A program made the translations under genes and the position numbers. The notes beneath the pieces are model-generated. The model was not told the DNA's origin. It was given only the letters and a program-made list of their open reading frames with translations, and did not search any database. A stretch of DNA of 14,699 bases from a virus (lineage: Duplodnaviria; Heunggongvirae; Uroviricota; Caudoviricetes). Of this stretch, positions 2,898 through 12,634 are shown in pieces. Position 1 is the stretch's first letter. Each line of letters opens with the position of its first letter. The stretch lies in the IMG/VR virus record IMGVR_UViG_3300029998_000021; one strand, written 5' to 3'.

Positions 2898-3695
2898 TTA
2901 ATTTATTAATTTTATTTCAATTTCTTGATGACAAGATATATTTTTTAATCCTTTGAAATCCTCAAAATCAATAATATAACCTTCTAAAAATTTATCATTC
3001 AAAAATTCGGCAGAAACATTTCCATGAACATTATTATTCCAATTTTGAACTTTATTTATTGGATTATTTACAATCACTGATTCTTCAAAACAAATCATTT
3101 TTGGCCTCTTTAATGGATAACTAGCCAATATACTTTCATAAGAATTTGGATTATTAAAAGTTAATACCTTTGTTATAGCAGTTATTTCTTTAGTTCTAAA
3201 AAAATGTCCATCTAAACTCATTGGATAACTATAATCACCTTGTGCGCCATACCACTTAAATAATAAATTAGAATCAAAATTAGGTGGTGTCATTCTAATT
3301 CTTGCTGCATAACAATAAGTTAAATATGGATGTAACCTAAGTGATAAAGTCAAAATATCATCATTTAATGTAAATAACTTAAATTGTTTAGAATCTAATG
3401 TAAAATAATTTTTAAAAACTATATCATCAACAAAAAATATAGTGTATGGATTATTCTGATCTAATAAAAGAACAACATGACGTTTGAAATCTTGTATTTC
3501 CCTTATATAATTAATATTTGAATCATTATGAATACTGAAAAGTTTATCATAACCATCTTTATACTTATCATTTGAATAAGTATATAATACATTAATTTTA
3601 TAATCATAAAATTCTTTAAAATAAAATTTCATTGATCTCAAAAAAAGTTCTAGTTGTGAGGCACGATCTTTACTGAAAACTATAATATTCAACAT
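2898..3695 (-). CDS. Putative GT-A fold glycosyltransferase
   Basis: N-terminal beta strand IIVFSKDR.SQL..FL.S and an FFVDD DxD-like motif, in an operon of glycosyltransferases. The family cannot be assigned. Confidence 0.6.
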   Translation of the reverse strand: MLNIIVFSKDRASQLELFLRSMKFYFKEFYDYKINVLYTYSNDKYKDGYDKLFSIHNDSNINYIREIQDFKRHVVLLLDQNNPYTIFFVDDIVFKNYFTLDSKQFKLFTLNDDILTLSLRLHPYLTYCYAARIRMTPPNFDSNLLFKWYGAQGDYSYPMSLDGHFFRTKEITAITKVLTFNNPNSYESILASYPLKRPKMICFEESVIVNNPINKVQNWNNNVHGNVSAEFLNDKFLEGYIIDFEDFKGLKNISCHQEIEIKLIN

Positions 3696-3725
3696 AAATT
3701 ATTATAGGTTGTGGAAATAAAAAGG

Positions 3726-3742
3726 TTTAGAATTATTCTAAA
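3726..3742 (-). terminator. Weak AT-rich hairpin, possible terminator or attenuator between the nuclease-Mom gene and the glycan operon
   Basis: TTTAGAAT-T-ATTCTAAA dyad, followed on the minus strand by CCTTTTTATTT. The stem is almost all A/T. Confidence 0.3.
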
Positions 3743-3745
3743 TAA

Positions 3746-5725
3746 TTATCTATTTTTTGGATATACATATGTCTTATTAATTTGTTCGAATTTTTTTCTC
3801 AAAAATTTAGTTTCTCCATTATCTTTACCTAAAATATAAATGTATTTATGTTTAGATTTTGCTTTTCTAACATAGCATTTACCTAAAGACTCAATAGAAT
3901 AAGTTTTCATCATTTCAACAATATTATTTGGGATTTTATTCCATAAAATTGTAGTTTTTGAATTCCATTCATTATTCCATATTATATTATTTTTTCTTAA
4001 ATATGATTTATAAAAATTCAATTTTCTAAATCCTCTATTATTAGTCCATCCTTTATCTGGATTATCTGGATTAAAATATAACTTATCTGAGCCAAATTTA
4101 TTACCAATATAATAAAAATTACAAGCTTGATAAATTGTACCAAGTTCTTTAGCTTCAGGATCTGCATATGCTTCAAATAATCTAAATTCTGTATTATCAG
4201 CCATCCACCTTATAGACCACATTAATAATGCACTTGCTAAATTTTTAGGTGTCCATGACGCACAAGCACCTCTACTTATAAGTTTTTCTATGCCAGATGT
4301 ATCATTTCCTAATATTGAAGAAAATGAGTTTGGTGTTGACATCACAATAGATCCAGCTAATATGCCATTATATGTGGCAATAAATCTATGTGTAGGTCTA
4401 TTAGGCATCTTACCTAACCATTCATATTTTTTAATAAAATTAACAATATCTTTTGTCTTATTATCTTCTTTATCAACAAATTCAAAATTAAAATCTTTGA
4501 TAGTTAAATTTTCATAGTTAAAATTTAATTTTTTAATATCATCATCTAATGTATTTAATCGTAATTCATATTGCCATGAATGTTCTTTATTGTAGATAAT
4601 AGGATTAATCATCTTATTAAAAATATTATAATTTCTATCTATAATAAAAATAAAATTATAACCATTTTCTTCACACACTAATTTCTTAGCTATATTTTTA
4701 TCATAATGTTTATCATACCAATATGAAGATTTTATTTCTATTATTAAATTTAATTTTTCAAAATAAAAATCAGGATAATATATACATTCTTTATCTTTGA
4801 AATTATATTTTATTGCTTTACCTCTTTTTATTTCAATTTTATCAAAATAATTATTTAAAAAATCTAATTCATATTCTCCTTGATAATATAATTCAGATTC
4901 ACGAAATTTAAAGATATGTAGACCATTTTTAATCATTTTTTTATATACATCTGCATTTTGTGCTGGATAATATACACCATATTTTTCAAAAATAATATTA
5001 GATAATTTTTGTTTTACTAACTCATTTTGCATTGGATTTTCAAATCCAAATTTTTCTAAACAAGTTTCTTTATATTTTTCTCTATTATTATAAAACTCAT
5101 CATTATATCTTTCTTTTTTTGTATCAGATATTTTATCTTTAACTATTTTAGAGCCTAAAGGTGACTTAGATAAATATCTTAGCAAACATGTATTTTCAAC
5201 TTTTAATTTAATTTCATCATTCTTCAAAGGTGAGTCTACACCATATAAATTATTTAATGTTATTTTTGATTTTTCTTTAAAATCATTAGTTGACATATAT
5301 TCATCAGAACCATATTTTTCATTAATTGTTTTTTTTGATTTTTCCCTAACTTCCTTATTTTGGATAGAATATTCTACTCCATATCTTTCTAAATTTGTTT
5401 CCTTTGATTTTTCTTTAAACTTATCTAATTTTAATGGATGATCTACACCATATCTTTCTAAATTAGTTTCTTTTGTTCTACTACCAGAACAATGTTTACA
5501 ATGATAAATACTATTTTGAATATTTCTTAAATACGAAAAATATGAAATATTATACTCTTTTTGACATAAATCACAAATAACATCTATTTTATGCTTTGAT
5601 GTTTTTGGCAAATCAGAAACATCAATAGTTATAATACTACCTGATTTTACATTATAACCTAAATTAATATAATGACCTATATTTTTGTTAGTTGTTTTAA
5701 CTTCTATTCTGTCTATTTTAATCAT
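3746..5725 (-). CDS. Fusion of a homing-endonuclease-like module (Zn ribbon, 23-aa repeats, PD-(D/E)xK nuclease) with a Mu Mom-like GNAT DNA adenine-modification domain
   Basis: CDLC...CKHC Zn ribbon; eight ~23-aa K.T..E+YG repeats; YYPDFY...IIEIKS nuclease motif. From ~aa 372: ISRGAC..WTPKNLAS.LL.WSIRW...EAYADPEAKELGTIYQACNFYYIG and terminal HKYIYIL...YPK, paralleling Mu Mom (..QSFADERCG..GVVYQASNFDFIG...YRYI.FL...YPK). Confidence 0.8.
   Translation of the reverse strand: MIKIDRIEVKTTNKNIGHYINLGYNVKSGSIITIDVSDLPKTSKHKIDVICDLCQKEYNISYFSYLRNIQNSIYHCKHCSGSRTKETNLERYGVDHPLKLDKFKEKSKETNLERYGVEYSIQNKEVREKSKKTINEKYGSDEYMSTNDFKEKSKITLNNLYGVDSPLKNDEIKLKVENTCLLRYLSKSPLGSKIVKDKISDTKKERYNDEFYNNREKYKETCLEKFGFENPMQNELVKQKLSNIIFEKYGVYYPAQNADVYKKMIKNGLHIFKFRESELYYQGEYELDFLNNYFDKIEIKRGKAIKYNFKDKECIYYPDFYFEKLNLIIEIKSSYWYDKHYDKNIAKKLVCEENGYNFIFIIDRNYNIFNKMINPIIYNKEHSWQYELRLNTLDDDIKKLNFNYENLTIKDFNFEFVDKEDNKTKDIVNFIKKYEWLGKMPNRPTHRFIATYNGILAGSIVMSTPNSFSSILGNDTSGIEKLISRGACASWTPKNLASALLMWSIRWMADNTEFRLFEAYADPEAKELGTIYQACNFYYIGNKFGSDKLYFNPDNPDKGWTNNRGFRKLNFYKSYLRKNNIIWNNEWNSKTTILWNKIPNNIVEMMKTYSIESLGKCYVRKAKSKHKYIYILGKDNGETKFLRKKFEQINKTYVYPKNR
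4955..5473 (-). repeat. Eight ~23-aa tandem protein repeats (K-x-T-x-x-E-R/K-Y-G) in the endonuclease-like module
   Basis: KETNLERYGVDHPLKLDKFKEKS / KETNLERYGVEYSIQNKEVREKS / KKTINEKYGSDEYMSTNDFKEKS / KITLNNLYGVDSPLKNDEIKLKV / ENTCLLRYLSKSPLGSKIVKDKI / SDTKKERYNDEFYNNREKY / KETCLEKFGFENPMQNELVKQKL / SNIIFEKYGVYYPAQNADVYKKM. Confidence 0.85.
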
Positions 5726-5729
5726 AATC

Positions 5730-5737
5730 TATATATT
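5730..5737 (-). promoter_or_regulatory. Putative late promoter -10 box AATATATA
   Basis: AATATATA 4 nt upstream of the ATG at 5725. The same box precedes four other minus-strand genes and resembles the T4 late box TATAAATA. Confidence 0.55.
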
Positions 5738-5788
5738 ATTTAATAGCACAAAAGTTTATATTATTATCAATTTAATAGCACAAAAGTT
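5738..5788. repeat. Perfect 19-bp direct repeat pair, 32-bp period
   Basis: ATTTAATAGCACAAAAGTT at 5738-5756 and 5770-5788, abutting the putative late promoter of the nuclease-Mom gene. Confidence 0.9.
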
Positions 5789-5812
5789 CAAATTAATATA
5801 TAATAACACACA

Positions 5813-5842
5813 AAAAAAGAGAGGATAAATCCTCTCTTTTTT
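5813..5842 (-). terminator. Intrinsic terminator of the major capsid gene (potentially bidirectional)
   Basis: AAAAAAGAGAGGA-TAAA-TCCTCTCTTTTTT perfect 13-bp stem with T tracts on both strands, about 20 nt after the MCP stop (TAA TAG). Confidence 0.9.
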
Positions 5843-5861
5843 ATTATGTAGTGTGTAACTA

Positions 5862-7682
5862 TTAGATTAAAACACCAGCTGAGTCAGTAACAACAATTGT
5901 CATGAATTGTTTCCAAGGAAAAAATCCGATATCGGCAACCGCGTAACGGCTACGAATCATCATTCTGGGTGCCCAAGTTGCTTCGGAAATAAGTTGAATT
6001 GACTGTGCCATCAAATAAGGTACGAATACCAAACCTGGTTGTTCAACAGAATTCTTTCTTCCTAAGAAGATGCGGTTGTCATCCCATCTTTGATAAGGGT
6101 CAACATAGATGCTGATGTTACCAACATTACCCATTGGGAAAAGTTGACCATTTGCGTTTAAGTTAGCCTTAACAGGGTTAAGAGTATAACCAGCAACATC
6201 TTGAATAACAGATGCTAAGTTACCATTGGTAACAAGATATTGAGCAGGACCTACACGACCTTCAGTTGCGATGAAGTTAGAAGCGTTGTTCAATTTAGCG
6301 ATAAGTTTTCTTTGAATTGAGTGAGTTGTTTCACCACCTGGGGTAGCTGCACCAACTGCTAAATAAGCGTCAACGTTGAAGTCAAATTTAGGATTACCGG
6401 CACTATCTTTTGGAGTAGTCCAAGCAGTTCTATTTTTGTCAGCCATCTCAGTTACTTTTGCGATGATTTGTTTAGAAATAGTTTGGGTAAGTTCGTTAAC
6501 CAATACTGATTCTAATTTTTGAACGATATCCATGCCTGTTGCAGCTTTAATATCTTCAATTTGAGTTCTCTTCAATGAAGAAGTGATTTCGATGTCACCT
6601 ACTTGAATAGTTTTGGTGAAAATGTCAGGACCAATAACGTTTGGATAAGTTCTTTCGTCTTCATCTCTTGTCATAGGTTTGTTCAAATACCAACCTGCAC
6701 TAAATCCAGGAATATGATCTTCAAGTAATGATACTAAATCAATAGTAGCACCTGTTAAAGGAACTTCAGTAACAATAGCGGTAGTAGTTGCAATTTGCAT
6801 TGAAACGTGATCGTTCAATAAATCAACGATTGAATATTGAGCTGTTGGGAAAGTATTTCTATCATCAACAAATCCCCATCCTGCGTTATTAGCGCCTGGG
6901 TTAAATTGACGGAATACTCTAAACATAGGATAACCGTTAATACGTGACCAACCTAAAAATTCCATCATACCTTCTTTTGCAAGAGTTGTATTTTTAGCAT
7001 AATTAGTTAGGGTTGGATCAAATCCTTGAAGAATAGGAGCTGTAATAGCACCTGCTAATGCGTTATAAGCTGCATAGTTACCAGTTGTATTACCCAAGTT
7101 AACTGTTAAAGTTCCACCAGTTAAGTGAACATAAAGAGGATTAGTTAAACCACCTATTTTTTCTCTTACTGGTTGTCCATTAGCATCCAATTTAGCGCCC
7201 ATAGCCAATTTTAAAGCTGCATTAATAGCGGTTTTGCTAGGTAAATTCAATGAGAACATAATTGGTCTTTCATCTTTCAATGTAGAGTCAGCTAAGTTAT
7301 CATATTTAAAGTCAACAAATAGTAAATCAACTTTTGGAGAAGAAGCTGGTTTAACAGCTACTAAATCAAGACCAATAGTTTGAGCAGCAATTTTCATAGA
7401 AACTGGAAGTAAATTCTGTCCAATATCACCTGAACCAATACCACCTGCACCTGCAGTATAATCACCCCATACTAAACCAGGAGTAGTTGAAGGTTGAGCA
7501 GCTGTAACTGGGCCCATACCGTTTAAGTTACCTAATGTGCTATAAGCAACATTTTCGTTCAATGAATGCATTTCTGCATATTCAGACATCCATTTCATTC
7601 TGTAAGGATCACTAACGCCTAAAGATTCCAATACTGGTTTCCATTTTGCGGTTGCTTTCTGTGAATCAATTATTAAATTCAT
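5862..7682 (-). CDS. gp23: Major capsid protein, T4 gp23-like
   Basis: N-terminal KWKPVLE; AQTIGLDLVAVKPASSPKVDLLF (cf. T4 IAFDICGVQPMNSP); C-terminal YVDPY...PGLVFVPY...WAPRMMIRSRYAV (cf. GIYYAPY...FQPVMGFKTRYG). It follows protease/scaffold as in T4. Confidence 0.93.
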   Translation of the reverse strand: MNLIIDSQKATAKWKPVLESLGVSDPYRMKWMSEYAEMHSLNENVAYSTLGNLNGMGPVTAAQPSTTPGLVWGDYTAGAGGIGSGDIGQNLLPVSMKIAAQTIGLDLVAVKPASSPKVDLLFVDFKYDNLADSTLKDERPIMFSLNLPSKTAINAALKLAMGAKLDANGQPVREKIGGLTNPLYVHLTGGTLTVNLGNTTGNYAAYNALAGAITAPILQGFDPTLTNYAKNTTLAKEGMMEFLGWSRINGYPMFRVFRQFNPGANNAGWGFVDDRNTFPTAQYSIVDLLNDHVSMQIATTTAIVTEVPLTGATIDLVSLLEDHIPGFSAGWYLNKPMTRDEDERTYPNVIGPDIFTKTIQVGDIEITSSLKRTQIEDIKAATGMDIVQKLESVLVNELTQTISKQIIAKVTEMADKNRTAWTTPKDSAGNPKFDFNVDAYLAVGAATPGGETTHSIQRKLIAKLNNASNFIATEGRVGPAQYLVTNGNLASVIQDVAGYTLNPVKANLNANGQLFPMGNVGNISIYVDPYQRWDDNRIFLGRKNSVEQPGLVFVPYLMAQSIQLISEATWAPRMMIRSRYAVADIGFFPWKQFMTIVVTDSAGVLI

Positions 7683-7730: not shown

Positions 7731-7768
7731 TATATATTCTTTAAAAAATATCGTTTTTTTCTATTTTT
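7731..7768 (-). promoter_or_regulatory. Extended late promoter of the MCP gene (38-bp element, copy 1)
   Basis: Minus strand AAAAATAGAAAAAAACGATATTTTTTAAAGAATATATA, 33/38 identical to 10182-10219 (hand count), ending in the ATATATA box. Confidence 0.7.
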
Positions 7769-10160
7769 AAGAATTTAATTTATCAAATACTGATTTAAAT
7801 CTATCTAACTGTGAATCAGATAATTTAGAGCCGTCAACAAGACGATTTTCAGTGATTAATTGTTTTGAAGGTTTTTCGTTTGTATACCTTTCTAAATCTC
7901 TACTAAACCAGAAACTCTCAAATTTTTGTACTGTATCTAAGGCAGGGAATAATCTTGAAGATGTCAAGATTTGGTTTTTTACATTTGTGTCGAGTTTTTC
8001 CCAAATTGGTGTTAATTCTGATGGCATTGCATCAAGTAATAATTCATTAAATGACTTTTTCTTTGGAGAAAGAGCTTCATTGATGATTGATAAAACTTGT
8101 GCTTCTGAAGTGTACTTACCTTCGCTTTCTTTTAATGCGATTTTAACTTTAACTTTATCGTCATTACTTAAGTTATAATAAGCTGTTTTTCTCTTTTCTG
8201 TTAAGAACATCAAGAAATGTGGTTGATCTGTTTCTGAAGCTTTACGTTTTTTAGTTTCAAGGATCAAAGTATTTAAATTTTCTGTTAATCTGTTTTGAAC
8301 GTTTGTTAATCTGCTACCAAGTCTAGTAACTTTAGATTCATGAACCTCAACTTCTGGTTGTGCACCTTCAGCATCAGGAACGTCTAATTTAACAACAATC
8401 ATTCCATTTTGAGGATTAGTTGCTTGAACTTCACCTGTTTGATCACCAATAGCGACAGTTTCGCCAGGAGATGGCATACCTGTTACTTCACCTTCACCAG
8501 TATCTGTAAGAGCTGGTTCTTCAGTTGTTGGCTCAATTGGTTCTTCTGTTGGTAATTCTCCATCAGGTTCTCCGTCTTCAACTGGTTCTTCAACACCTTC
8601 TTCGCCTGTTGGTTCTTCGGTTGTTGGTTGATCTACAGTTGGTTCAGCTGTTGGTTCAGCGGTTGGTGTAGTTGCTGGTTCTTCATAATATTTATTAACA
8701 TCAACGTCGTCATCTTCATTAATAAATTGGAATTTACTTTCAAGAACTTTTCCAGTTTTTAAATGTTCTGTTAAAAGTTTTGAACCTTCAATAGTTTTAT
8801 CTAAACTTTCTGCAATATAATTAGTATAAGCCATTGCATCGTCTAGATTTTCAGCAATATACTCTGAATAAGAGATATTATTATCTACATGTTCTGCAAT
8901 ATATTCTGAATAAGCAATATTATTATCAAGATTTTCGGCTATATACTCTGAATAAACAATAGAGTTATCAAGATTTTCTGCTAAATATTCTGAATAAACA
9001 ATTGAATTATCAAGATTTTCTGCTAAGTATTGTGAGTACTCAATTGAATTGTCAAGATTTTCAGCGATATACTCTGAATAATCAATAGTTTTATCAAGAT
9101 TTTCAGCGATATATTCTGAATATTTGATATTTTTGTCAACATGTTCTGCAATATATTCTGAAAAGTCAATATTTTTATCCAAGGTTTCAGCGATATATTT
9201 ACCATAGTCAATAGATTTGTCTAGAGTTTCAGCTAAATACTCAGAATAATCACTTACTTTTTCTAAACTTTCAGCAAGATAGTCGTTGTGCTTAATTAAA
9301 TCGGTTGTAGTTTTTCTCAACTCAGCATTTTCTTTAACAACAATTGTCAAATTTTCTGCTAAATAATCTAAGTATTTGCCGATTTTTGTTTGTTGTTCTT
9401 GTAATTTTTCATAATAGCCTAGCATATCATTTAACTTAGAAGGATCAAAATCGCCTTTTGTTTTAATGGCTTCATTGATATTACCTTTGAATTTTTCAAT
9501 TTCTTCTGTTAAATAATTTGAATACTCAAGCATTTGTTTTTTGGTTACAAAGTCTTCATTCATTTTAAATAATTCATTAATTTTTGACTCGTCGGATATA
9601 TCATATACCCTAAAGTTGGCTGATTCATTAAATCCCAAACTTTCATTTAACGATTTAACTTCCATTCGTGCTGAACTAAATCCTGGATCAGCAACGGCAT
9701 CATAAGTAAATAACTTTTTAACAGTTACTGTTCCATCTGATTCTGTGATACCCGCAGCTCGAGACGACACGAAAATAGGACAACCATCATCAACAAGTGC
9801 TTTAGCCTCTTTACCCCAATGGGTATTAAGCAATCTAATTTCACCTTTAACTACGTTAGTTTCTTTAACGAAAAAGGCTTTTTCAATTGTGTGGGAAACT
9901 CTTGATAATGAAGTGTCAAAAACATCTGGGTGGTCAAATTCTCCATAAACAACTCCTAACTGATTCTTACGACTTATTAATTCGTTCAAGTGAGGGAGGA
10001 ACTTATCAGCAGTATATATCCTATCATTACGATTTTTGATATTGAATTCTGTGAATGTCCCTTCTAAAATGTACTGTCTATCTTTACCATTAGTAATAGA
10101 AGAGTGTTCATTTAGTTTTAGACCGTCCATGCAATGTTCTACAATAAGGACTGGTTTCAT
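7767..10160 (-). CDS. gp21: Prohead protease (gp21-like) fused to prohead core/scaffold (gp22-like), 797 aa from the ATG at 10160
   Basis: YILEGTF..FNIKNRNDRIY, GEFDHP (catalytic His), FVSSRAAG (catalytic Ser) and YDAVADPGF match T4 gp21 motifs. A long acidic coiled-coil/repeat region follows in the gp22 position. The track start at 10205 runs through the promoter, so MKPVL at 10160 is the likelier start. Confidence 0.88.
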   Translation of the reverse strand: MKPVLIVEHCMDGLKLNEHSSITNGKDRQYILEGTFTEFNIKNRNDRIYTADKFLPHLNELISRKNQLGVVYGEFDHPDVFDTSLSRVSHTIEKAFFVKETNVVKGEIRLLNTHWGKEAKALVDDGCPIFVSSRAAGITESDGTVTVKKLFTYDAVADPGFSSARMEVKSLNESLGFNESANFRVYDISDESKINELFKMNEDFVTKKQMLEYSNYLTEEIEKFKGNINEAIKTKGDFDPSKLNDMLGYYEKLQEQQTKIGKYLDYLAENLTIVVKENAELRKTTTDLIKHNDYLAESLEKVSDYSEYLAETLDKSIDYGKYIAETLDKNIDFSEYIAEHVDKNIKYSEYIAENLDKTIDYSEYIAENLDNSIEYSQYLAENLDNSIVYSEYLAENLDNSIVYSEYIAENLDNNIAYSEYIAEHVDNNISYSEYIAENLDDAMAYTNYIAESLDKTIEGSKLLTEHLKTGKVLESKFQFINEDDDVDVNKYYEEPATTPTAEPTAEPTVDQPTTEEPTGEEGVEEPVEDGEPDGELPTEEPIEPTTEEPALTDTGEGEVTGMPSPGETVAIGDQTGEVQATNPQNGMIVVKLDVPDAEGAQPEVEVHESKVTRLGSRLTNVQNRLTENLNTLILETKKRKASETDQPHFLMFLTEKRKTAYYNLSNDDKVKVKIALKESEGKYTSEAQVLSIINEALSPKKKSFNELLLDAMPSELTPIWEKLDTNVKNQILTSSRLFPALDTVQKFESFWFSRDLERYTNEKPSKQLITENRLVDGSKLSDSQLDRFKSVFDKLNS
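8790..9293 (-). repeat. Twelve in-frame 42-nt (14-aa) tandem repeats, consensus xYSEYIAENLDxxI
   Basis: KHNDYLAESLEKVS, DYSEYLAETLDKSI, DYGKYIAETLDKNI, DFSEYIAEHVDKNI, KYSEYIAENLDKTI, DYSEYIAENLDNSI, EYSQYLAENLDNSI, VYSEYLAENLDNSI, VYSEYIAENLDNNI, AYSEYIAEHVDNNI, SYSEYIAENLDDAM, AYTNYIAESLDKTI. Confidence 0.95.
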
Positions 10161-10181: not shown

Positions 10182-10219
10182 TATATATAAGTTAAAAAAT
10201 ACCATTTTTTTCTATTTTT
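10182..10219 (-). promoter_or_regulatory. Extended late promoter of the protease-scaffold gene (38-bp element, copy 2)
   Basis: Minus strand AAAAATAGAAAAAAATGGTATTTTTTAACTTATATATA, 33/38 identical to 7731-7768, about 21 nt upstream of the ATG at 10160. Confidence 0.7.
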
Positions 10220-10232
10220 GAATTAATCAACT

Positions 10233-10281
10233 ATTTAAAATGAAAAAACCAGATTTTTAATCTGGTTTTTTCATTTTAAAT
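10233..10281 (-). terminator. Long perfect inverted repeat, intrinsic terminator ending the portal/183-aa transcript
   Basis: ATTTAAAATGAAAAAACCAGA (10233-10253) pairs perfectly with TCTGGTTTTTTCATTTTAAAT (10261-10281). The CCAGA/TCTGG core is followed by T6 on both strands, and one arm overlaps the stop at 10276. Confidence 0.85.
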
Positions 10282-10827
10282 TGTATTCATAAAATCATCA
10301 ATATCATCATCAGTTTTCTTTATTACTACATTTTTAGGTTTTTTAGTAGTTTTAGTGTTGCTTTTTATTTCTACTTTTGTAGCAACTAATTTTTTATTTT
10401 CTTTTACTTCTTTTATCATTTCTTCAAGTGAAGGCTGTTTAAAAATTTCTTTTACTTCATCTTCTTTAATCTTTTCCAAAAATGCGGCATTTTCATCATC
10501 AGATTTTTTCATTTCTTCTTCAAAAGAATTTTCAGATTCAATTATTAATATTTTTTCTTTGACCCATTCTTCACTAAAATATGGGATGTTGTCTTCATTT
10601 ACAATATGCAATAAAGTTTCTGCTATTTCTGCTCTTTGAATTTTAGTTTTTTCTTCATTCTCAGTGTTAATGTCATATTTATAACCAGGAATCTTCAATT
10701 TTTTTAATTCGTTATCAATTATAACTTCATAATAATTATCGTTCTCACCTATAAATTTTTCTACATCTTCAATATCAAATATTTCATTGTGATATAAAAT
10801 TGATACTATTCTTCTATCTATACTCAT
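10276..10827 (-). CDS. Acidic/Lys-rich hypothetical protein in the T4 gp67/gp68 position, containing a segment paralogous to the portal C-terminus
   Basis: Lies between portal and protease. RAEIAETLLHIVNEDNIPYFSEEWVKEKIL aligns with portal RAEIASTLSSNLQDAEGKPYLSIEWIVRNIM. Confidence 0.7.
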   Translation of the reverse strand: MSIDRRIVSILYHNEIFDIEDVEKFIGENDNYYEVIIDNELKKLKIPGYKYDINTENEEKTKIQRAEIAETLLHIVNEDNIPYFSEEWVKEKILIIESENSFEEEMKKSDDENAAFLEKIKEDEVKEIFKQPSLEEMIKEVKENKKLVATKVEIKSNTKTTKKPKNVVIKKTDDDIDDFMNTI

Positions 10828-10843
10828 TATATTAAATTATTTT

Positions 10844-12634
10844 TTAAAATTCTGTACTACCTTGTGTTTGGCCTCCACCTTGTGCTTGCCCTCCGCCTTG
10901 TGCACCACCTTGTGCACCACCTTGTGCGCCACCAGTTTGTGGTGCTTGAGCCTGTCCACCTTGAAGGTTCTGTCCTCCACCCATTTCACCCTGAGGACCA
11001 CCCATTTCACCACCAGGTCCTCCCATATCAGGCATACTCATATCGCCGCCACCGCCTCCACCGAAGCCACCGCCACCACCGCCTTCACCTGGTGATGCTA
11101 GTCCGCTCATCATCTTATATTTATTATTAGATTCTATATCTTTATCAGTAAATTTCATAATATTTCTAACAATCCATTCAATACTTAGATATGGTTTACC
11201 TTCAGCATCTTGTAAATTGCTTGATAAAGTTGATGCTATTTCTGCTCTCTTAGATAAATTATTTAAATATTTCCATTCTTCAAATAAGTCATTAGAATTA
11301 AATTTCAATTTAATATAACTATCAAAAATTCTATCTTGTTCTAATTCAGGAAAATCTAAAACCATTTGAATTTTTAATGGTTTAACCAATATTTCTTTAA
11401 ATAAAGTCCTTAATCTATTAACAAAAGTCTTAAATCTAATTTCATCCATTGTTAATGATGATGTATCATCATAAAAAGCACCACCACCACTATCTTCATC
11501 TAATCTGGAAAATGGCATTTTAGATGCTCTTTTCAAACCTTTATAAAACCATTGAAGAGTAATATCTTCATTCAATTCTGCTTGTTGTGGTTGCTCAATA
11601 GTCATTTCTGGAGTACCAGCTTCTGATTGTGGAAACCAATAATCTTTTGAATGTGGTATTTTAGTTGATCCATTTATATAAGGAATACCAGTTCTATCAT
11701 CCCATTCGATATCTTCATGATATTCACTCATCAACTGTTGAATTTGTTGCTCTGCTTGTTGACGAGTTAAGCCACCAACAGGAATAATAAATTTTTTATA
11801 AATAGATGCTTGATTTAAATTATACATTAATTTTGTAAATTCTAATAATTTAAGTTGATTATAAGGTTTAATAAGTCCCTCAACATAAGATGTTTCATCA
11901 TAATCTAAGTTATTAGAATAGGAAATATAAATAATATTAGCATCTAATAATACTCTTCTTAATTGTGGAATATCTGGATTTTGAATCCAAACAACTGTAC
12001 CAGTTCCTGGCTCAGCAGCTACAATAAGAGTAAGTGGATCCAATAAGTTAAGGTCAATAATATTTTTTTGATTATCATCATAAACAATTTCAAACGCTAA
12101 AAATCCATCAATTAAAAATGTTTTCATATAATTCCAAGCTGTTAAGCCATCATTAAAATTAAACGCATTATAAATTCTTCTGAAATTCTCTTGGTATTTA
12201 GCTCTAATAGTTTGATCATAACTATCTGGTAAATCGGTTAAACTGCAAAAATAATTATCATCATCATACATTACCGCTTCTTCAGCAATTCTTGTAACAT
12301 AATCTTTTATTTCCTCTTTAATAGCATATTGATGTAAAATTTTTCTTTTATCTAAATATCTTCTATCTAAATATGCAATTGATTTCTTCTCTAATATTTT
12401 AGATATTATTTTCTTTGTGAATAAATCATACATATTTGTACCTGGCTCATAAAGCAAATTACTAGTATCTTGAAATGCGCCAACTGCTTGACTATTCTTA
12501 ACTACCATTTCTTGATCATCCATTCCAAAATTGCTCAATCTTTTTAGTAATTTATTACCAAAACTTCTTCCTACATTTCCTTTACCAAACTCATACATTG
12601 AATTTGGTTGATTATATCTGTTGTATGTTGCCAC
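10844..12634 (-). CDS. gp20: Portal protein, T4 gp20-like (GTG start, Gly/Gln-rich tail)
   Basis: IKPYNQLKLLE (T4 IKPANQLKLLE), KDYWF, QWFYKGLKRASKMPFSRL (T4 RWFRQALYMALRVPLSRI), TMDEIRFKTFVNRLRTLFKEILVKPLK (T4 [27 protein letters not shown]). Confidence 0.95.
   Translation of the reverse strand: MATYNRYNQPNSMYEFGKGNVGRSFGNKLLKRLSNFGMDDQEMVVKNSQAVGAFQDTSNLLYEPGTNMYDLFTKKIISKILEKKSIAYLDRRYLDKRKILHQYAIKEEIKDYVTRIAEEAVMYDDDNYFCSLTDLPDSYDQTIRAKYQENFRRIYNAFNFNDGLTAWNYMKTFLIDGFLAFEIVYDDNQKNIIDLNLLDPLTLIVAAEPGTGTVVWIQNPDIPQLRRVLLDANIIYISYSNNLDYDETSYVEGLIKPYNQLKLLEFTKLMYNLNQASIYKKFIIPVGGLTRQQAEQQIQQLMSEYHEDIEWDDRTGIPYINGSTKIPHSKDYWFPQSEAGTPEMTIEQPQQAELNEDITLQWFYKGLKRASKMPFSRLDEDSGGGAFYDDTSSLTMDEIRFKTFVNRLRTLFKEILVKPLKIQMVLDFPELEQDRIFDSYIKLKFNSNDLFEEWKYLNNLSKRAEIASTLSSNLQDAEGKPYLSIEWIVRNIMKFTDKDIESNNKYKMMSGLASPGEGGGGGGFGGGGGGDMSMPDMGGPGGEMGGPQGEMGGGQNLQGGQAQAPQTGGAQGGAQGGAQGGGQAQGGGQTQGSTEF
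10847..11092 (-). repeat. Gly/Gln/Met-rich low-complexity portal tail with GGAQ x3 (12-nt) repeats
   Basis: PGEGGGGGGFGGGGGGDMSMPDMGGPGGEMGGPQGEMGGGQ...GGAQGGAQGGAQGGGQAQGGGQTQGSTEF, visibly the most GC-rich stretch of the window. Confidence 0.9.

Follow-up and report, generated by a model that had tools for sequence, protein, structure and literature searches.

A predicted homing-type nuclease joined to a Mom-family module in the variable slot downstream of the capsid gene of a T4-like huge peat phage

Architecture and conservation of the fusion protein

The stretch of DNA analyzed here, hereafter the window, comprises 14,699 nucleotides from the IMG/VR record IMGVR_UViG_3300029998_000021, which is itself a 25.7-kb fragment of 5% completeness. 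All long open reading frames (ORFs) of the window lie on the minus strand, in the order T4-type portal, gp21-like protease fused to scaffold, gp23 capsid gene and an ORF that joins a predicted nuclease to a Mom-family module, the subject of this report; a series of glycosyltransferase and methyltransferase genes follows. The carrier is a T4-like huge or giant phage of peat soil. The head genes in the window (portal, gp21-like protease and gp23) are of T4 type, and the DNA of positions 3700-5900 is almost confined to peat metagenomes, where it was found in at least 20 runs from separate studies.

The nuclease-Mom ORF (3746..5725, minus strand) encodes 659 amino acids (aa), has its stop codon at 3746-3748 and contains no internal stop. 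The N-terminal half is recognized by the Pfam family DUF7487 (E 2.8e-49, in three stretches) and by 'homing endonuclease' families of PHROGs, of which phrog_12131 and phrog_5104 match from aa 1 and phrog_3339 is matched by the repeat region only. It also matches 'Hef-like' genes of Dickeya phages. The AlphaFold2 (AF2) model of this half, with a predicted local distance difference test (pLDDT) score of 87.8, contains a beta domain, a Zn ribbon, eight helix-loop units and an alpha/beta core. The small beta-rich domain at the N-terminus (aa 1-50; 5576..5725, minus strand) has strands at residues 6-10, 31-35 and 46-50, and is also kept in free-standing ORFs of the DUF7487 or homing endonuclease (HEN)-like type. 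It is followed by a four-Cys Zn ribbon (aa 51-79; 5489..5575, minus strand), whose residues C51, C54, C76 and C79 are invariant among 65 homologues, and by eight tandem 23-aa helix-loop repeats with the consensus ..K.T...KYGV..P.Q... (aa 82-261; 4943..5482, minus strand). The helix-loop units of the model match the repeat register, and the array is presumed to serve in DNA recognition. The number of repeats differs among homologues of 546-560 aa. In several of the peat runs the repeat region is present as diverged variants, whose contigs break off at 5093, 5378 and 5418.

The array leads into a PD-(D/E)xK nuclease core, defined by structure alignment and by motif (aa 270-377; 4595..4918, minus strand). 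Its putative catalytic residues are E286/D288, D319, E330 and K332; the PDF and EIK motifs occupy aa 318-320 and 330-332, within nt 4730-4774. Residues E286/D288, P318-D319 and E330-I331-K332 are near-invariant in the 65 full-length homologues. Comparison of the core with known structures by VIA-align gave Z scores of 8.5 for TnsA, 8.0 for Vsr, 7.9 for the homing endonuclease I-Bth0305I (21% identity) and 5.6-7.8 for VRR-NUC and Hjc nucleases, and all top matches were restriction-fold nucleases aligned across the same range. The fold was recovered by VIA-align only: Foldseek of the N-terminal half against the PDB gave no match at E<=0.001, and PDB sequence searches with a single sequence and with a profile returned chance matches only. 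A weak NCBIfam match to Vsr falls in the core. The composite EDxHD motif (the Vsr-type Asp, His, Asp), a mark of the Vsr/Hef lineage (PMC3239194), is absent from it, and the classical E..PD..ExK arrangement is present instead. A ...EF(D/N)G..WH.. motif, which occurs in proteins that occupy the same genomic slot in other loci (L026, L032 and L051), is likewise not found in the PD..EIK core.

The C-terminal half is a Mom-family GNAT module of 282 aa (aa 378-659; 3749..4594, minus strand), a discrete unit that starts with ..NKEHSWQY.. and ends with ..YPKNR and that was identified by Pfam, an AF2 model and Foldseek. Its match to Pfam Mom (PF25680) has an E value of 3.6e-11 and 43.6 bits, against a curated cut-off of 27.1, over aa 431-544; phrog_1384, 'Mom-like DNA modification protein', matches aa 423-657 with an E value of 6e-16. 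The motif YADP...GTIYQACNFYYIG spans aa 520-541, and the terminal YPK occupies aa 655-657. The AF2 model of the module, built from an alignment of 32 homologues, has a mean pLDDT of 90.5, and its best match in the PDB is the crystal structure of Mu Mom (8bv8; Foldseek E 1.3e-8 over 257-260 columns), with a target-normalized template modelling (TM) score of 0.63-0.68 and about 15% identity in the structural alignment. Generic GNATs rank below it, with E values near 1e-5 over about 150 columns. Mom of Salmonella phage FSL SP-031 ranks first among viral models (BFVD; E 4e-14, TM 0.80). Campylobacter phage CP21 and Pseudomonas phage PA5oct also have proteins annotated as 'homing endonuclease' in which the structure search found Mom-like folds.

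Residues of importance to the activity of Mu Mom (PMC13219725; PMC7261163) map onto the module as W48 to W436, H58 to H446, R111 to R485, S124 to S498, D149 to D522, Y159 to Y532 and W181 to W560, and these seven positions are invariant or nearly so in the 32 module sequences. Among them, R111 is a Mom-specific essential residue in Mu (PMC7261163; PMC13219725). Relative to Mu Mom, the module has an additional N-terminal extension of 35 aa and an insertion of about 40 aa. In Mu, a helix-turn-helix (HTH)-like insertion at residues 175-209 is required for Mom activity; in the model of the module, the helices that follow the conserved Trp at module residues 186-201 may be its counterpart. By assignment, the C-terminal half is a Mom-family enzyme, and it is predicted from sequence and model to modify adenine.

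The architecture thus agrees with the original prediction, made from the letters and their ORFs alone, which had read the Zn ribbon, the eight repeats, the PDF and EIK motifs and the Mom motifs in one uninterrupted frame. That prediction had named as weak points a C-terminal domain that might model as an unrelated GNAT, a fusion unique to this assembly, and a stop or frameshift near 4612. The last two do not apply, as the following results show, and the module model matches 8bv8 ahead of generic GNATs. A search of 5.8 billion proteins recovered about 65 full-length homologues of 639-663 aa with 47-81% identity, all with both Pfam domains, together with one protein that is 100% identical. Their sources are JGI, ENA, NCBI and Logan assemblies, and the contigs of some are 640-711 kb long. 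The junction between the domains falls at nt 4595-4612, with a short linker and a conserved junction, and Logan contigs from four independent peat runs span nt 4482-4857 without differences or gaps. The homologues and the independent contigs over the junction exclude an assembly artefact. For the closer pairs, both halves have a ratio of nonsynonymous to synonymous substitution rates (dN/dS) of 0.15-0.30, which indicates purifying selection and that neither half is decaying in this lineage. Among GenBank phages, megablast with the gene gave nothing, and tblastn found the two halves separately only, with no record covering at least 80% of the protein.

The slot downstream of gp23 and its surroundings

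The fusion follows gp23 on the same strand in five homologue loci, in some of them with one to three extra DUF723/DUF7487 ORFs in between. A survey of 70 related IMG/VR loci, anchored on the capsid protein, found the fusion downstream of gp23 in about 16 loci, and always there when present. It is missing in about 28 loci that have enough downstream sequence, some of them with a capsid gene 84-88% identical. The edges of the cassette are sharp: homology to the cassette-less locus L016 covers the capsid gene with its terminator, breaks off at 5787 and is found again from 3745, one base beyond the stop codon of the fusion, and the gap is occupied in L016 by a 318-aa DUF723/DUF4379 zinc-finger ORF (L016:6398-7354). 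Elsewhere the slot holds a 496-aa protein with the same N-terminus and repeats and a Vsr-like core, without Mom, or a 572-aa full-length member of the 'homing endonuclease' family phrog_3339. The slot directly 3' of gp23 is a hotspot.

Decayed copies were also found. L051 retains the last 124 aa of the Mom module only, as a 5'-truncated remnant; L060 retains a frameshifted and truncated N-terminal half; and in the protein P0076 an internal deletion has removed the PD motif and left the Mom module intact. A core, vertically fixed late gene is rejected by the presence and absence survey and by these remnants. An intergenic cassette of patchy presence, with sharp edges and decayed copies, is the pattern of free-standing homing endonuclease genes, which cluster beside essential genes (PMC2988022; PMC10448857). 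The patchy distribution, the exact replacement of the cassette and the decayed remnants therefore support its reading as a selfish element.

The slot occupants examined were L016:6398-7354, L025:7916-8668, L032:7961-9451, L026:7921-9639 and L051:8299-10017. The 572-aa phrog_3339 proteins among the slot occupants have a C-terminus with a Mom-like motif, TYADRS..QGNLYEILGF. For the 572-aa protein of L026, no sequence link was found between its GNAT-like C-terminus and the Mom module described here; the motif and BFVD matches to similar proteins amount to a resemblance.

On the upstream side, the gene had been predicted to sit directly after the terminator of the major capsid protein gene and to have a late box of its own. 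The terminator is confirmed: a 13-bp stem followed by a T run lies after gp23 at 5813..5842 (minus strand), is the only terminator-like site in 3500-6100 and marks the upstream edge of the variable slot. The box holds in part. The sequence AATATATA is present at 5730..5737 (minus strand), 5 nt before the ATG, and it also precedes the capsid, portal and Stealth genes, with all five minus-strand copies intergenic; its total count in the window is not above chance (9 against 5.5 expected), and its positional pattern is suggestive. The T4 late promoter box TATAAATA is not enriched in the window either (8 against 6.3 expected). Late expression of the nuclease-Mom gene is plausible.

Further upstream, two exact 17-nt copies of CTTTTGTGCTATTAAAT lie at 5786-5770 and 5754-5738 (minus strand) with a period of 32 nt, and the sequence has no other match in the window. 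Relatives carry a longer form, TATAAAC-TTTGTG(C/A)TATTAAA, one to three times before the cassette, and the approximately 80 loci fetched contain it nowhere else. The repeat is a conserved motif specific to the cassette and probably a promoter or operator. Another motif, of about 25-40 nt, is common to the protease and capsid genes and distinct from the one upstream of the nuclease-Mom gene. It possibly represents a head-gene promoter. In the form AAAAATAGAAAAAAA(C/T)G(A/G)TATTTTT it was seen at 7744-7768 (minus strand) before the capsid gene and at 10195-10219 (minus strand) at the start of the protease-scaffold gene, and BLAST pairs window positions 7731-7770 with the region before the protease in L025 and L026.

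A few observations concern the neighbouring genes. The portal protein has a long low-complexity tail rich in Gly, Gln and Ala (aa about 515-596; 10844-11100, minus strand), of the form GGGGGGFGGGGGG...GGAQGGAQGG. The interval between portal and protease holds an unrelated 183-aa ORF in the window (10276-10827); in three other loci (L004:1-1393, L006:1780-3411 and L008:1-1403) the same interval contains an extra free-standing DUF7487 gene of 530-545 aa on the opposite strand. No tRNA genes were found in the window.

Partners of the Mom module and interpretation of the fusion

A profile search with the module recovered 1099 clusters (at 50% identity) at E<=0.001, of which 159 reached E<=1e-30. 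The module occurs either as a stand-alone protein of 260-320 aa or as the C-terminus of proteins of 450-890 aa, and Pfam Mom was scored in 54 of the 55 long representatives. The detectable partners are DUF7487 in eight representatives (one with DUF559), LAGLIDADG in three and HNH in two; further partners are REase_MTES_1575, a tyrosine recombinase, CapR, NUMOD3, DUF4379 and assorted HTH domains. All of these partners act on DNA; several have homing-endonuclease folds or, like CapR, NUMOD3 and DUF4379, are DNA binders of the homing type. Examples of single polypeptides are P0125, P0133 and P0130, in which the module is joined to LAGLIDADG, to an HNH endonuclease and to a tyrosine recombinase of the Phage_integrase family, respectively.

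The module is also found in bacterial elements. In a bacterial contig of 2 Mb (L010:87-14111), a protein that combines the module with HTH_17 lies beside three consecutive tyrosine recombinases and FtsK in an integrative element, and a second Mom-family gene (299 aa) of the same contig lies beside another integrase, with DarT-Macro and RHS/Ntox33 genes in the vicinity. Mom modules appear to form a regular cargo of integrative elements.

We consider it fairly probable that, in the fusion, one DNA-recognition scaffold carries both a homing-type nuclease and an adenine modifier that depends on tRNA, in a selfish arrangement that resembles restriction-modification. The gene would be a free-standing cassette of the homing-endonuclease type in a T4-like huge phage. 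Its N-terminal half, comprising Zn ribbon, repeat array and PD-(D/E)xK core, would bind and cut DNA, and its C-terminal half, by analogy with Mu Mom, would attach an aminoacyl group to the N6 position of adenines in double-stranded DNA. The Mu enzyme uses glycine from Gly-tRNAGly and acts on double-stranded DNA (Silva et al. 2026, PMC13219725), a chemistry that supersedes the acyl-CoA donor assumed earlier (PMC13219725); the donor here would probably also be glycine from Gly-tRNAGly. The modification would mark the phage DNA and protect it from host restriction, probably also from the nuclease of the same polypeptide. Targets of the nuclease would be DNA without the mark or without the cassette, from the host or from co-infecting relatives, and its attack would maintain the cassette in its place after the capsid gene. 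The original prediction had proposed either such a one-gene selfish system or a Mom that gained a targeting module; its domains and the selfish-cassette reading are supported by the present analysis. We infer both activities, the acyl donor, the coupling of the two halves and the timing of expression. The architecture, its conservation, the intact active-site residues of both halves, the purifying selection and the gain, loss and decay of the cassette are direct observations.

Several findings weigh against this proposal. The matches of the nuclease fold are middling, with Z scores of 8-8.5, and at the sequence level only the core motif resembles Mu Mom: in a BLAST comparison only a 53-residue segment reaches 30% identity, an hhalign comparison of the module profile with Mu Mom covers no more than a 26-column core motif, at 68% probability, and single-sequence and profile searches of the PDB with the module gave no match. 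R151, which is essential in Mu, aligns to E524 (by BLAST and MAFFT) and is Glu or Gln in the relatives, so that the donor or the chemistry may differ; in this sequence-based alignment a nearby Lys or Arg at +2 could act as a substitute. The cassette is not more similar between loci than its flanks are, its identity (51-85%) falling with that of the capsid (54-91%), and a long vertical residence with losses fits these values as well as active homing does. The upstream motif of the cassette differs from that of the protease and capsid genes. Because the module is also joined to plain HTH domains and, in bacterial elements, lies next to integrases, a nuclease partner is not required for its function. 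Finally, cleavage and adenine modification are purely predicted for all members of the fusion family.

A rival explanation, which we regard as unlikely though it deserves attention, takes the gene as a site-specific homing enzyme directed against the capsid region of cassette-less relatives, with Mom as an independent anti-restriction passenger. Immunity would then result from sequence differences, as for the seg and mob genes of T4, and marking and cutting would be mechanistically unlinked. It would account for the several unrelated HEN-like ORFs, all without Mom, that alternate in the slot after gp23 and for the occurrence of the module alone (260-320 aa) and with HTH partners, and it agrees with the known position of homing endonuclease genes beside essential genes (PMC10448857). 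The short linker and the conserved junction speak against it, and the module has been fused repeatedly to at least three nuclease folds in one polypeptide and not placed next to them as a neighbour gene, an independent recurrence that argues for a functional link. The partners of the module are also overwhelmingly DNA binders, which would suit a targeted Mom, in which the N-terminal half aims the modifier in the manner of the HTH_17, ParB-HTH and Myb partners, cleavage is unimportant and the gene belongs to the ordinary anti-restriction accessories of a variable region. Variants that have lost the nuclease core but kept an intact Mom, such as P0076, are in line with this possibility; a pure binder, however, would not need catalytic residues, which are near-invariant in the approximately 65 homologues, and dN/dS of the N-terminal half equals that of the Mom half. 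We judge the targeted Mom to be improbable.

Least probable of all, in our view, is a GNAT that acts off DNA, on aminoacyl-tRNA (as TacT does), on a protein or on a small molecule, with a likeness to Mom in fold only. The lack of conservation of Mu R151, the N-terminal extension and the insertion relative to Mu Mom, and the short profile alignment speak for such an enzyme. It is at odds, however, with a Pfam Mom score above the curated cut-off, with the ranking of the Mom proteins of Mu and other phages above generic GNATs (250-260 against about 150 columns), with the invariance of R485, the equivalent of the Mom-specific R111, and with fusion partners that all act on DNA.

The proposed coupling of nuclease and modifier may extend beyond this locus. 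In a more general form, which we put forward only tentatively and hold to be rather doubtful, the Mom module would be a partner of homing endonucleases that confers self-immunity by local marking. One array would direct both the tRNA-dependent marking of its own target sites and the cleavage of unmarked ones, and the combination would have evolved repeatedly, with nucleases of the PD-(D/E)xK, Vsr-like, HNH and LAGLIDADG types and also with a tyrosine recombinase.

Nuclease-Mom fusions have so far been predictions, and the chemistry of Mom was settled only in 2026; the present family offers compact and well-conserved proteins with which to ask whether a hypermodified adenine can serve as the 'self' mark of a phage's own nuclease, whether homing endonucleases can protect the host genome epigenetically instead of by sequence change, and which donor and DNA motif are used by a Mom subfamily without R151. 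The slot after the capsid gene, with its intact, swapped and decayed cassettes, constitutes a natural series for the study of selfish-gene turnover in huge peat phages.

Comparison with known systems

The original prediction had stated that no characterized protein with this architecture was known. This was overstated with respect to the literature: according to Iyer, Anantharaman, Krishnan, Burroughs and Aravind (2021, Viruses 13:63; PMC7824862), several group 2 (T4-like) jumbo phages encode Mom-family enzymes, and fusions of endonucleases of the restriction endonuclease (REase) fold with Mom are predicted in jumbo phages, with the logic that modified adenines shield self DNA and the nuclease is directed against other DNA. 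Both the architecture and the idea of a restriction-modification-like system have therefore been published, as predictions only. The present protein shares with those fusions a REase-fold domain and a Mom GNAT in one polypeptide of a T4-like jumbo phage. It differs from them by its DUF7487 N-terminal half, with Zn ribbon, eight 23-aa repeats and a classical PD..ExK core, and by a distinct Mom subfamily of 282 aa. Two features documented here were not found in the available part of that paper, namely the gain, loss and decay of the cassette beside gp23 and the joining of the module to HNH and LAGLIDADG. Literature searches returned no paper that mentions DUF7487 and none that combines Mom, GNAT and homing endonuclease.

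The module resembles Mu Mom in its GNAT fold with Mom-specific features, the seven conserved residues and the C-terminal YPK. Mu Mom is a stand-alone protein of 231/241 aa under the control of Dam, OxyR, C and Com (Silva et al. 2026, PMC13219725; Karambelkar et al. 2020, PMC7261163), whereas the module described here is fused to a nuclease, carries the N-terminal extension and the insertion of about 40 aa, and is without R151. With the free-standing homing endonucleases of T4-like phages (seg, mob, Hef) the gene has in common the position as an intergenic cassette beside an essential gene and the patchy presence in relatives. Its protein, like homing enzymes, joins a modular repeat region for DNA binding to a nuclease, and the catalytic domain of I-Bth0305I is a structural match (PMC3239194, PMC2988022). 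In contrast to the Vsr/Hef lineage, the core is of the E..PD..ExK and not the EDxHD type, and a Mom domain is fused to it.

We know of no characterized homing endonuclease that bears a DNA-modifying domain. A comparable arrangement exists in Type IIG/IIL enzymes such as MmeI, in which a shared recognition part directs a PD-(D/E)xK nuclease and an adenine-N6 modifier in one chain; there, the modifier is an S-adenosylmethionine-dependent methyltransferase and the genes serve cellular defence. The analogy is one of arrangement only, with no homology between the modifying domains, and the modifier of the present protein is instead a predicted tRNA-dependent GNAT carried by a phage cassette.

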